DNA of 58,601 nt, from contig CALXUX010000084.1 of the NCBI GenBank assembly GCA_944391785.1, positions 1 through 58,601 on the forward strand. Reading direction: 5' to 3'. Of this stretch, positions 23,477 through 50,978 are shown piece by piece. Every line of letters starts with the position of its first letter. Within the stretch, counting starts at the first letter, position 1. The DNA comes from an uncultured Clostridia bacterium. GTDB taxonomy: Bacteria; Bacillota; Clostridia; TANB77; CAG-508. Below the pieces are notes generated by a model, which was given only the letters and a program-made list of their open reading frames with translations, was not told the DNA's origin and did not search any database. The position numbers were made by a program, and so were the translations under genes.

Positions 23477-23491
23477 TATAATAAAATCTAG

Positions 23492-23838
23492 AGTAAATTG
23501 AATAGTCGCTGGTAAATTCCGAAAGGAACTACGAGAGGAAAGTCCGGGCTCCATAGAGCAATGATGCTAGATAACGTCTAGTGGGGGAAACCCCAAGGAA
23601 AGTGCAACAGAAAATAACCGCCTAAAAAATTTAGGTAAGGGTGAAAAGGTGAGGTAAGAGCTTACCAGAGCTATGGTGACATAGCTTGTTTTGTGTAAAC
23701 CCCATCAGGAGCAACACCTTAAAAAGAAGATAAAGCCTGCTCGGCGCCTTCTTAACATGAGTGGCTTGAGGTATGTAGTGATACATATCCTAGATAAATG
23801 ACTATTTTAAAAGACAGAACCCGGCTTACAGATTTACT
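23492..23838 (+). ncRNA. rnpB: RNase P RNA (Firmicutes-type)
   Basis: GAGGAAAGTCCGGGCTCC, ACAGAAA, GGGTGAAAAGGTGAGGTAAGAGCTTACC and ACAGAACCCGGCTTA are present. The ends pair (GTAAATTG with CAGATTTAC). It forms a GC-rich island in AT-rich DNA. Confidence 0.92.
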
Positions 23839-24745
23839 TAAAATTTAAATTGGTCAATTGTGACCTGGTCACGATTGACCATTTTGGGTAATCAGTAATT
23901 GTTATTTTTTTACCGCCAACTGGATGAACAAATTCTACTCTATAACAATGTAGCATTTGAAAGCTACTAATAGGTGAGGCATCTCCATATAAAGTATCTC
24001 CAACTAAAGGATGATTTAAGTATGAAAAATGCACTCTTATTTGATGTGTTCTTCCTGTTTCTAGTACACATTCAACTAGGCTTGAACTTTCGAAATCCTT
24101 TAAGACTTTATAATGAGTTATTGCTGTTTTTCCTTTTTTAAAGTCAATACATCTTTCTATGATACTATTAGGTTTTCTTGCTATTGGTAAATTTATTGTA
24201 TCTGTTTTTTTCTCTAAGTTTCCATTTACTAGTGCTAAATAACGTTTTTCAAATTGTTTTGACTGCATTTCTTTTATTAAATATTCTTGAATGTATTCAC
24301 ATTTTGCAAAAATTACAATTCCTGATGTTCCAAAGTCTAGTCTATTTACTGGGCGGATTTTTTTATGTAAGCCAATTGTGTCAAAATAATATTTGATTCC
24401 ATTTGAAAGTGAATCTTCAAAGTGTAACATTGATGGATGTATTGCAATTCCAGCAGGTTTTGAAATGATTAATATCCAGTCATCTTCATAAAGAATTGAT
24501 AGTGGCATTTTTTTAGGAATTATGTTTGAATTGTCTTCTTGGTTTGAAAAATCGATGTTTATTTTATCATTTATATTTGGCTTTAGTTTTGTGTTTATAC
24601 TTGTGCCATTTATTTTTATTCGATTTTCTTTTATTAGTTTTTGTAGTAGTTTTGTTGAAATTTGTAGTTCGTTTTTTAAAATTTCATTGTATGAATTGAA
24701 AAATTCTTTAGTCACAGTATAATTAATTTCCATTTTTAAATTCAT
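23834..24745 (-). CDS. RluA-family pseudouridine synthase with an N-terminal S4-like domain. The start is uncertain. The last 15 or so codons are encoded by the palindromic repeat.
   Basis: Catalytic motif RPVNRLDFGTSGIVIFAK, then ...GRTHQIRVHF... The track ORF N-terminus MVNYDLVTINQ is repeat-derived, so an internal ATG (24745 or 24733) is more likely. Confidence 0.8.
   Translation of the reverse strand: MNLKMEINYTVTKEFFNSYNEILKNELQISTKLLQKLIKENRIKINGTSINTKLKPNINDKINIDFSNQEDNSNIIPKKMPLSILYEDDWILIISKPAGIAIHPSMLHFEDSLSNGIKYYFDTIGLHKKIRPVNRLDFGTSGIVIFAKCEYIQEYLIKEMQSKQFEKRYLALVNGNLEKKTDTINLPIARKPNSIIERCIDFKKGKTAITHYKVLKDFESSSLVECVLETGRTHQIRVHFSYLNHPLVGDTLYGDASPISSFQMLHCYRVEFVHPVGGKKITITDYPKWSIVTRSQLTNLNFK
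23851..23881. repeat. GGTCA/TGACC palindromic repeat, copy 2
   Basis: TGGTCAATTGTGACCTGGTCACGATTGACCA. Confidence 0.9.
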
Positions 24746-37990: not shown

Positions 37991-38030
37991 GGTTAAAATT
38001 TGCGGCTTAAAATAAACCGTGAATTGTAAC
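37991..38030. repeat. Solo copy of the left-flank motif of the palindrome-element family
   Basis: GGTTAAAATTTGCGGCTTAAAATAAACCGTG compares with GTTATAATTTATGGCTTAAAATGGGTCGC (44013) and AATTTGCGGCTA/AATTTACGGCTAAAATGAACCGC (50671/50688). Confidence 0.5.
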
Positions 38031-43429: not shown

Positions 43430-43909
43430 ATGAAAAAGTTTTCAACATATTTACTAGTAATGTTTATGATCCTATTTTGGATATTAAGAATAGTAATAAC
43501 ACTAATGGCACAACTAGGTCAAGACTTTATGGGAGTAGTTCCAATAGATATGACATTTGAAATAGTACTGTTATTTGCATTTTTACTTTGTGTAATATTA
43601 GTTGTAAAAAGAAAAATATTAGGAGCATTATTATACTTAGGCTTACACGCAATATATTTTGGGGGAGATATTACATCTAAAATACAAATGATGGTAAATG
43701 GAGAGACTCTTGGTATGGATCAAATGGGAGATTTATTATTTTCAATTATAGGGATAATATTACCACTTGCCGTTTTAGTAGATTTATTATTAGATAGAGG
43801 AAGAAAAGAACATCCGGTAGATAAAAAAACTGATTGGTTTTATAAAAATGAGCAATTTGATAGGAAGTTGGATGATAGGGCAGATAAGAATAATTATAGA
43901 ACATTGTGA
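43430..43909 (+). CDS. Hypothetical integral membrane protein (about 4 TM helices)
   Basis: 159-aa ORF with RBS GGGGA and hydrophobic helices throughout. Confidence 0.6.
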   Translation: MKKFSTYLLVMFMILFWILRIVITLMAQLGQDFMGVVPIDMTFEIVLLFAFLLCVILVVKRKILGALLYLGLHAIYFGGDITSKIQMMVNGETLGMDQMGDLLFSIIGIILPLAVLVDLLLDRGRKEHPVDKKTDWFYKNEQFDRKLDDRADKNNYRTL

Positions 43910-44012
43910 ACTTTGGGGACGTTCCTTAGAGTTCATGCTTTATGGGGGATTTTGAATTTTGGAAATGTTTATGATGTTTTTTTAGTTGGAGGAAATATTT
44001 GTGTCCGCCTGA

Positions 44013-44281
44013 GTTATAATTTATGGCTTAAAATGGGTCGCCCTCTAAGGCTTTATTTATATAAAATTTATTCCATTCCTCGGCTCAATACGTGATTTAG
44101 CCCTTCTAAATATAAAACAAACGAGCCTCTCGCTACATTCTTCGCGCTTCCTCATTTGTTTTATATTAAGAAGGGCTACAATCACTCCACTCGCATTCGT
44201 CATTGCATAAATTTTATATAAATAAAGCCTTAGAGGGCTTCTCTACATTTAAAAATTACGGCTATGAATAGTAATCCGCAC
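44013..44281. repeat. Palindrome element copy B: conserved left motif, 197-bp nested near-perfect palindrome (44041-44237), conserved right motif GCTTCTCTACA
   Basis: Outer arms 44041-44071 and 44207-44237 are perfectly complementary (31 bp). Inner arms 44098-44125 and 44151-44178 match at 26 of 28 positions. The internal loops and apex are C/T-rich on the + strand. Confidence 0.85.
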
Positions 44282-44444
44282 AAATAATTTACTATTTACT
44301 ATTTACTATTTGGGCTACTTTGTGCAAAATAAATATTCTTATTAAATTTTAGAATTTAATATTTTTTGGTTAAAGAAATTCCAATAATTAAGGTAAATGA
44401 TTTTTTTGTAGCCTAAAATTTGAAAAAAGGAAGTGATAATAATA

Positions 44445-50450: not shown

Positions 50451-50670
50451 ATTTTGTGCCTCCTTGGAATTTTATATTTTTTGTTTGATAGGAAAAATCG
50501 ACTTTTATCTTGAGCTTCTTGTGTGGATTTTTTTGTATATAATAAGAAAAGTGTCCTTTAAAAAGAACTGAGTAAGTTTTGATTATGTAGCTTTGCTACT
50601 TTTTTTATGGAAATAGTATATCATAAAATATTGAATTTAGATAGTATTTTTATTTAAAATGATTGGTTAT

Positions 50671-50978
50671 AATTTGCGGCTAGTTACAATTTACGGCTAA
50701 AATGAACCGCGTCAAGTGGAGATTATATAAATAATTTTAAAATATAAATGGCTCCTTGCATAACATAAGAACTTCTAAGTAAAATTTTTGGCACCCTTTC
50801 TGCATAATTTTCTCGGGCGAAAATTTGCGAACTATTTCCAAAAATTTTACCTAAGAAGTTCTAATGTTATTCCAGTCACACATTTATATTTTAAAATTAT
50901 TTATATAATCTCCACTTGACGCTTCTCTACAAATTGGTATGAGTTGTGATTTGTAGCTATGGCTAAAATTAATCGCAC
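50671..50978. repeat. Palindrome element copy C: duplicated left motif, 214-bp nested near-perfect palindrome (50709-50922), GCTTCTCTACA, then a repeat of the left motif
   Basis: Outer arms 50709-50750 and 50881-50922 are perfectly complementary (42 bp). Inner arms 50760-50791 and 50838-50870 have one bulge and one mismatch. ACGGCTAAAATGAACCGC (50693) matches ATGGCTAAAATTAATCGC (50959) at 15 of 18 positions. Confidence 0.85.

Follow-up and report, generated by a model that had tools for sequence, protein, structure and literature searches.

Upstream of rbgA, the stretch of 58,601 nucleotides analysed here (the window), from an uncultured Clostridia bacterium, contains a long nested palindrome. 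The first-pass annotation, made from the letters alone, had noted its anti-Shine-Dalgarno-like loops, had read it as young, selected, or maintained as an RNA gene or a mobile hairpin element, and had pointed to an assembly fold-back as a possible source of error. What kind of sequence is it, and where does it begin and end?

At positions 44040-44238 of the window, an outer stem of 32 perfectly matched bp leads through asymmetric internal loops to an inner stem of 28 bp, which is closed by an apex of 25 nt. By repeat search, the arms of the outer stem are 37 nt long and 95% matched (44040-44076 and 44202-44238); the perfect stretch within them, 44040-44071 with 44207-44238, is 32 bp long, so that the perfect stem first described stands, with a length of 32 and not 31 bp. 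The same search returned the inner stem as it had been described, with arms of 28 nt at 44098-44125 and 44151-44178, 93% matched (26/28) and separated by 25 nt. The strands of the internal loop, 44072-44097 and 44179-44206, are exactly as originally quoted. The palindrome, as had been noted, is richer in GC (0.367, and 0.422 in its core) than the window (0.265). When folded as RNA, the interval 44013-44311 has a minimum free energy of -101.9 kcal/mol on the + strand (z = -13.7) and of -107.9 kcal/mol on the - strand (z = -11.2), and none of 200 shuffles of it folded as stably as the real sequence.

In BLAST searches against the bacterium's own genome, similarity always starts at 44013 and stops at about 44275. 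The repeat unit, here called element B, is therefore 44013-44275, 263 bp long. The span originally proposed, 44013-44311, thus contains a genuine repeated unit but runs past its end; the 3.4 copies of ATTTACT that had been taken as part of it are present, at 44287-44311, but belong to another repeat, family Y. The only open reading frames overlapping element B are spurious ones of 48-60 aa. The element is built in layers: a short shell, made of inverted repeats and two conserved unpaired stretches, then a long outer stem, and then a core of about 170 bp (about 44053-44225), which has the asymmetric conserved loop motifs TTYCTCGGYT ... CATTCG, the inner stem and, at the apex, a small hairpin. 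The features of the locus, and one further element of the window that is discussed below, are as follows.

43908 to 43934, + strand: REP-type hairpin GAACTTTGGGGACGTTCCTTAGAGTTC, a separate repeat outside element B, just after the upstream gene
43985 to 44004, + strand: host repeat family Y, left part, from the family Y alignment after removal of element B and one duplication copy
44005 to 44012, no strand: target-site duplication, left copy CCGCCTGA, decayed, matching the right copy CCGCACAA at 5/8 positions (other copies 6-8/8)
44013 to 44275, + strand: whole element B, a probable non-coding MITE copy (shell and nested hairpin), delimited by BLAST start and stop points shared with other copies
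44013 to 44039, + strand: left shell, with the degenerate terminal inverted repeat GTTATAATTTATGG (consensus GTTACAATTCACGG, from the census of terminal inverted repeats) and the conserved unpaired CTTAAAAYRGGYC
44040 to 44071, + strand: left arm of the outer stem, perfect over 32 bp; roughly 14 nt at its base vary among copies, the distal 18 nt are conserved
44072 to 44097, + strand: internal loop, left strand, with the conserved core end motif TTCCTCGGCT; mean identity among copies 0.98
44098 to 44178, + strand: inner hairpin, with stems 44098-44125 / 44151-44178 and apex 44126-44150, the latter with a small GC clamp and a variable tip
44179 to 44206, + strand: internal loop, right strand, with the conserved core end motif GCATTCGTCAT
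44207 to 44238, + strand: outer stem, right arm, from the repeat search
44239 to 44275, + strand: right shell, with the conserved TWCTCTACATTT and the degenerate terminal inverted repeat CTATGAATAGTAAT (consensus CCGTGAATTGTAAC)
44276 to 44283, no strand: target-site duplication, right copy CCGCACAA
44284 to 44350, + strand: host repeat family Y, right part, with the run of 3.4 ATTTACT and ATTTGGGCTACTTTGTGCAAAATAAATAT
50683 to 50957, + strand: family A element, with the same shell and ends as element B and a 6/8 duplication

The assembly to which the window belongs (G000: 1.53 Mb, 118 contigs, 27% GC) was surveyed by BLAST and by module searches, including blastn-short. The genome-wide census that had been proposed yields about 10 full or contig-broken copies of element B, together with deletion derivatives and half-copies; the element is small and non-coding, and is multicopy and dispersed over different contigs. 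Near-full copies lie on contigs C2, C86, C65, C118, C81 and C11; one copy runs off the end of C50 and resumes where C93 starts, and another opens contig C102. Partial copies of the right-hand side are found on C51, C76, C48 and C66. Among the short derivatives, those on C13 and C8 retain the shell and a simple palindrome, those on C12, C92 and C61 only a shell of 63-76 nt, and solo half-elements are numerous. These short forms look like the deletion products expected of an unstable long palindrome. Several contigs of the assembly break inside copies of the element. Some copies (C65, C11, C51 and locus L273) carry extra outer inverted arms, AAAGTTTCCNCATYTTTTTGTGCC ... GGCACAAAAARTGNGGAAACTTT, and on C65 the larger unit is bordered on both sides by TAATATAAA, as a fourth tier of nesting.

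The conserved flanks seen in the first reading recur in other copies and are part of the element: its ends are terminal inverted repeats of 14 nt, GTTACAATTCACGG on the left and CCGTGAATTGTAAC on the right. When up to 2 mismatches are allowed, the former occurs 45 times in G000; the two ends of the window copy depart from the consensus at 3 and 4 positions. With no criterion but the inverted repeats to set the boundaries, the 8-bp flanks were compared in 11 elements that have such repeats at both ends. On average they are identical at 6.9 of 8 positions (a mean computed with the window copy scored one base off, its true end being 44275), compared to 2.24 for mismatched flank pairs, and just 0.9% of mismatched left/right pairs reach 6/8 or more. 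The duplication is perfect at five copies (C12, C13, C61, C86, and C50 with C93), 7/8 at three (C2, C34, C46) and 6/8 at two (C81:16052 and window 50683); in the window copy, where CCGCCTGA faces CCGCACAA, it is 5/8. With this reduced duplication, and with the mismatches in both of its inverted repeats, the window copy is an old one.

The same shell and ends enclose an unrelated interior in a second family, A, found at 50683-50957 of the window and on at least 8 other contigs. Just upstream of this family A element, a solo end lies at 50666-50679, and a pair of ends forming a 39-bp miniature is located at 37992-38030.

The spacer that hosts the window copy, between the gene for a 159-aa membrane protein (stop at 43909) and rbgA (start at about 44445), is a mosaic of repeats: the REP-type hairpin at 43908-43934 is followed by element B, which lies inside the left arm of palindromic family Y. 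When element B and one copy of its duplication are removed, the window sequence aligns with family Y copies on seven other contigs, and both decayed duplication copies can be derived from CCGCCCCA of family Y. The window copy landed inside a family Y repeat, in the spacer upstream of rbgA; the ATTTACT run lies beside element B because the latter sits within that repeat. Family Y itself has arms ..ATATCCGCCCCAATAGTAAAT / ATTTACTATTGGGGCTACTCTGTGCAAAAATAGATATC, occurs at no fewer than 10 loci of the genome and is often bordered by GGGGACGTTCC hairpins. In another genome, G006, the ortholog of the window's upstream gene is followed by a hairpin related to the REP-type one, with the same loop and a different stem. 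A comparable nesting is seen on C86, where a copy of element B lies in the loop of a REP-type hairpin, with a perfect 8-bp duplication. Targeting of hairpin loops was considered as a general rule and discarded: it is seen for the C86, C11 and window copies, but the targets in genome G079 are simply AT-rich.

Comparison with other genomes, which had been suggested as a check, revealed insertion polymorphism. The order of the 159-aa protein gene and rbgA is kept in genomes of the same genus, and in five of them the spacer measures 74-186 nt, as the stretches were extracted, and lacks the element, versus 535 nt here. An exact match to the core was found, in a public collection of species, in a sister MAG, uncultured Clostridia bacterium BRZ_HP__bin93. 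This MAG has an element of about 320 nt at a site where contig C92 of G000 shows about 57 unrelated nt, the flanks being otherwise nearly identical; the insertion on C81 is common to both genomes, at an orthologous site. The mobile-element alternative of the first reading is therefore supported: the copies are dispersed, end in inverted repeats and are bracketed by duplicated 8-bp targets, deletion derivatives exist, and orthologous sites differ in presence and absence of the element, with an empty rbgA spacer in relatives and both a shared and a presence/absence insertion in the sister MAG.

Because it is a multicopy unit with terminal inverted repeats, 8-bp target duplications and presence/absence insertions, 44013-44275 very probably represents a non-autonomous DNA transposon (MITE), in a copy that is old and decayed. 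On insertion the element, with its 14-nt terminal inverted repeats, duplicates 8 bp of its target, a mark left by transposases of the DDE type that cut with a stagger of 8 bp. The enzyme, presumably of this type, must act in trans, since element B has no coding capacity.

The family was then sought in other genomes by means of two patterns. The shell pattern (inverted repeat plus loop) is found in 60 of 201 genomes of the same genus, while 79 of the 201 contain the paired end motifs of the core (TTYCTCGGYT-N85-125-CATTCG), a genome having at most 21 copies; the reversed-pattern controls were near 0 in both searches. Over the whole order, the pattern is concentrated in the bacterium's own genus (26 of 74 genomes) and also occurs in a few other genera of the same family, other families contributing three single matches in 125 genomes. 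Phage and plasmid collections gave no match. In viral contigs the element ends found no match, and all matches to the core pattern were chance ones, in unrelated DNA of high GC. The literature searched contains no description of repeats of this sort in TANB77. Many sequence subfamilies are present, having the unpaired end motifs in common and differing in stems, apex and outer arms. In G006, the core and outer stem lie between inverted REP hairpins, without the GTTAC shell. From G079, a genome 99% complete with more than 25 copies, 18 copies of a homologue of about 250 bp, with GTTACTAGATAATGG-like ends, were collected; 8-bp duplications in AT-rich targets accompany these 18 copies, and are also found at MITEs of genomes G016 and G126.

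Conservation is distributed unevenly along the element. Among the seven full copies, mean pairwise identity is 0.71-0.73 at the base of the outer stem, 0.95 at its top, 0.98 in the left loop, 0.97 in the inner stems, 0.86 in the apex and 0.85 in the right loop. Conservation in MITEs is typically highest at the ends; in element B it is lowest in the shell (0.60-0.63) and highest in the core (0.95-0.98). Where the base of the outer stem varies, its arms are always perfectly complementary to each other. The contrast recurs at the orthologous site in two species, C81:5974-6235 of G000 and L271:6284-6541 of BRZ_HP__bin93: flanks and core are about 97% identical, while shell and outer-stem base are only about 55% identical (an estimate by eye from the alignment). 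Between these orthologs the stem base has been replaced on both arms, and one pair of the inner stem has changed on both sides. The simplest reading of a uniform core within a scrambled shell would be ectopic gene conversion between copies, joined to hairpin-templated correction within each copy. The perfect stems would in that case stay symmetrical at the DNA level, by hairpin or template-switch correction, and not through selection on an RNA.

Could the element nevertheless be one of a family of small structured RNA genes, with pyrimidine-rich loops pairing to Shine-Dalgarno regions and flanks acting as parts of promoters and terminators? The strong fold is in keeping with this proposal, and so are the unpaired motifs, pyrimidine-rich on one strand and conserved across species despite varying stems. 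Rfam, however, has no match to the element: RNase P, at 23490-23844, is the sole match at gathering level in the window, and the permissive E-value mode adds only weak matches to plant-miRNA hairpins far below threshold, which were called spurious. No convincing promoter or terminator signal was seen at the element. The stems themselves were examined in 34 elements from 31 genomes, each aligned to itself. Over 2,922 Watson-Crick pairs, isolated mismatches amount to 7 GT, 7 AC and 48 transversions; mismatches of the G·U type are thus rare and as frequent as A·C, unlike in RNA helices. The stems show neither G·U tolerance nor strand asymmetry, and their arms behave like DNA copies of each other. 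In G079, moreover, 6 of the 17 copies that could be classified have their core and outer stem turned round with respect to the shell; shell and core therefore do not keep their asymmetric loops on one and the same strand. In an inverton, a single locus occurs in either orientation among the members of a population and an invertase lies close by; what is seen here is a core orientation that varies between G079 copies. Orientation relative to genes had seemed to favour an RNA, 11 of 12 elements between co-directional genes in G000 being co-oriented with their neighbours. The bias is weak in other genomes (13 co-oriented, 6 anti) and absent in G079, where 3 cores are co-oriented against 8 and the shells divide 5 to 5, and it was dropped as evidence. 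Taking also into account that related species lack the element at the rbgA locus, and that inverted repeats and target duplications are marks of DNA transposition, the RNA-gene and anti-Shine-Dalgarno proposal of the first-pass annotation found no support, and such a gene family is very unlikely. Still less can be said for an assembly fold-back artefact or a regulatory palindrome specific to rbgA, although the position upstream of that gene, and the MAG contigs that end inside copies, might suggest one or the other. Many copies with different flanks exist in several genomes, homologous copies occur in dozens of independent assemblies, the orthologous copy in another MAG among them, and the rbgA spacer of relatives is free of the element. 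The artefact feared at the outset is excluded by these copies, and the chance that either explanation applies is negligible.

A different account makes the conserved core (TTYCTCGGYT ... CATTCG with the inner hairpin) the functional or mobile entity itself: as folded single-stranded DNA, or RNA, it would be recognised by some protein through its asymmetric loops and would spread into, or be homogenised among, pre-existing MITE shells that are mere carriers. The excess of core over shell identity, within G000 and again between the two species, agrees with it, as do the end motifs conserved across subfamilies whose stems and outer arms are completely different, the G006 core without its GTTAC shell, and the finding of the core in more of the 201 genomes than the shell pattern that was tested. 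On the other hand, shell and core move jointly in G079 as a unit of about 250 bp with the 8-bp duplications at the shell ends, and the core/shell junction bears no duplication or other insertion scar. No candidate enzyme could be tied to the core, the RAYT-like gene of the genome having a different flanking repeat; orientation shows no reproducible strand bias, and ectopic gene conversion between long similar cores accounts more simply for the pattern of identity. We regard this account as improbable. A related speculation, to which we would give slightly more room while still doubting it, is that the core of about 170 bp is a selected, protein-recognised module of folded DNA (or RNA) using MITE shells as vehicles, in a family moved by a type of transposase not yet linked to 8-bp duplications in bacteria; such a type is proposed because the usual candidates with matching ends are absent.

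A MITE may have a parent, an autonomous insertion sequence with the same ends. None with B-like ends was found in G000 or G079, but one may have been missed, as MAGs often lose multicopy insertion sequences. The IS256-type, ISL3 (fragments) and DDE_Tnp_1 transposases of G000 were considered as movers and set aside, their ends differing from those of element B, and an IS1595-type transposase was detected neither in G000 nor in five high-copy genomes. A pair of terminal repeats 2.7 kb apart on C107 turned out to belong to two partial elements, unrelated to each other, with nothing but housekeeping genes between them, and the unpaired terminal-repeat matches examined in G079 are all truncated MITEs. 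In G016, a PD-(D/E)XK 'transposase' gene (PF12784; locus L044, G016:C13:31300-33600) was also rejected: it lies between two MITEs of 66-78 nt, each with its own 8-bp duplication. The two PD-(D/E)XK genes of G000 have no MITE ends alongside, and the arrangement in G016 is probably a coincidence.

The search for a RAYT-type transposase and a reverse transcriptase, proposed with the first reading, found both in G000, but as parts of other systems. Two reverse transcriptases of 336-348 aa (C72:346-1726 and C47:5406-6792) each follow an Avd-like four-helix protein (NF033474, 67 bits, cut-off 80), and because of these adjoining genes the cassettes look like diversity-generating retroelements. A RAYT-like Y1 gene of 224 aa is located at C112:13741-14415 (NF047646 at 74 bits, just below the 80-bit cut-off), and within C112:13600-14460 it stands between inverted hairpins, TTGCCA..GGGACGGAGC..TGGCAA, unrelated to element B. 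The genome is full of REP-like hairpins, with 119 GGGACG[GT][AT][GC]C hairpin motifs against 0 in the reversed control, and two types are recognised, GAACTTTA-GGGACGTTCC-TTAAAGTTC and the TTGCCA..TGGCAA type just mentioned. This gene with its hairpins, the abundance of such repeats and the B copy in the loop of one of them could be taken to mean that element B is a palindrome of REP/REPIN type, or derived from IS200/IS605, moved as single-stranded DNA by the RAYT-like Y1 transposase. The repeats beside that gene, however, are not those of element B. IS200/IS605-derived elements have no terminal inverted repeats or target duplication, and insert beside a fixed tetra- or pentanucleotide; element B has inverted repeats, and its 8-bp duplications vary in sequence. 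Transposition by HUH Y1 enzymes does not give rise to such features. Nor does element B follow the REP/REPIN-RAYT arrangement, in which the repeat flanks the RAYT gene and no target is duplicated. Such a mover is accordingly highly improbable.

Small palindromic repeats with these habits are known from other bacteria. The Correia repeat-enclosed elements (CREE/NEMIS) of Neisseria, of about 100-160 bp, are non-coding, multicopy and intergenic, with terminal inverted repeats, a TA duplication and a long hairpin; no cognate transposase is known for them. Element B resembles them in being small, non-coding, multicopy and intergenic, with terminal inverted repeats, a duplication of fixed length and a hairpin spanning the whole element. 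It differs in duplicating 8 bp and not TA, in its length of 263 bp, in its three nested tiers with asymmetric conserved loops and in having ends less conserved than the interior, and the sequences are unrelated. ERIC/IRU of enterobacteria, RUP of Streptococcus pneumoniae and Nezha of cyanobacteria are imperfect palindromes of 100-250 bp, dispersed between genes, variable among strains and sometimes nested. Element B, too, is a dispersed intergenic palindrome with presence/absence variation and nesting; several of those families have an identified or suspected parent insertion sequence sharing their ends, whereas the search of G000 and G079 yielded no parent for element B. REPINs lack terminal inverted repeats with a target duplication and go together with a RAYT gene that is bordered by that same repeat. 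Element B is likewise an intergenic hairpin repeat, sometimes nested with the REP-like repeats of the genome, but it does have inverted repeats and a duplication, and is not tied to a RAYT gene.

Element B is thus a real, non-coding, mobile palindromic repeat and a new MITE family of a familiar kind; its layered build and its missing transposase are unusual among such selfish DNA. For annotation, these long palindromes in genomes of uncultured gut Clostridia are to be read as mobile repeats, and not as RNA genes, switches or assembly errors, and copies of the element are places where MAG assemblies break. For the study of mobile DNA, two features stand out: a transposase with matching ends is not visible even in near-complete genomes with more than 25 copies, and the interior stays near-identical while the ends and the outer-stem base are scrambled, the other arm always compensating perfectly. 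The meeting of element B, REP/RAYT hairpins and family Y at one locus illustrates how densely nested palindromes fill the intergenic DNA of these 1.5-Mb genomes.
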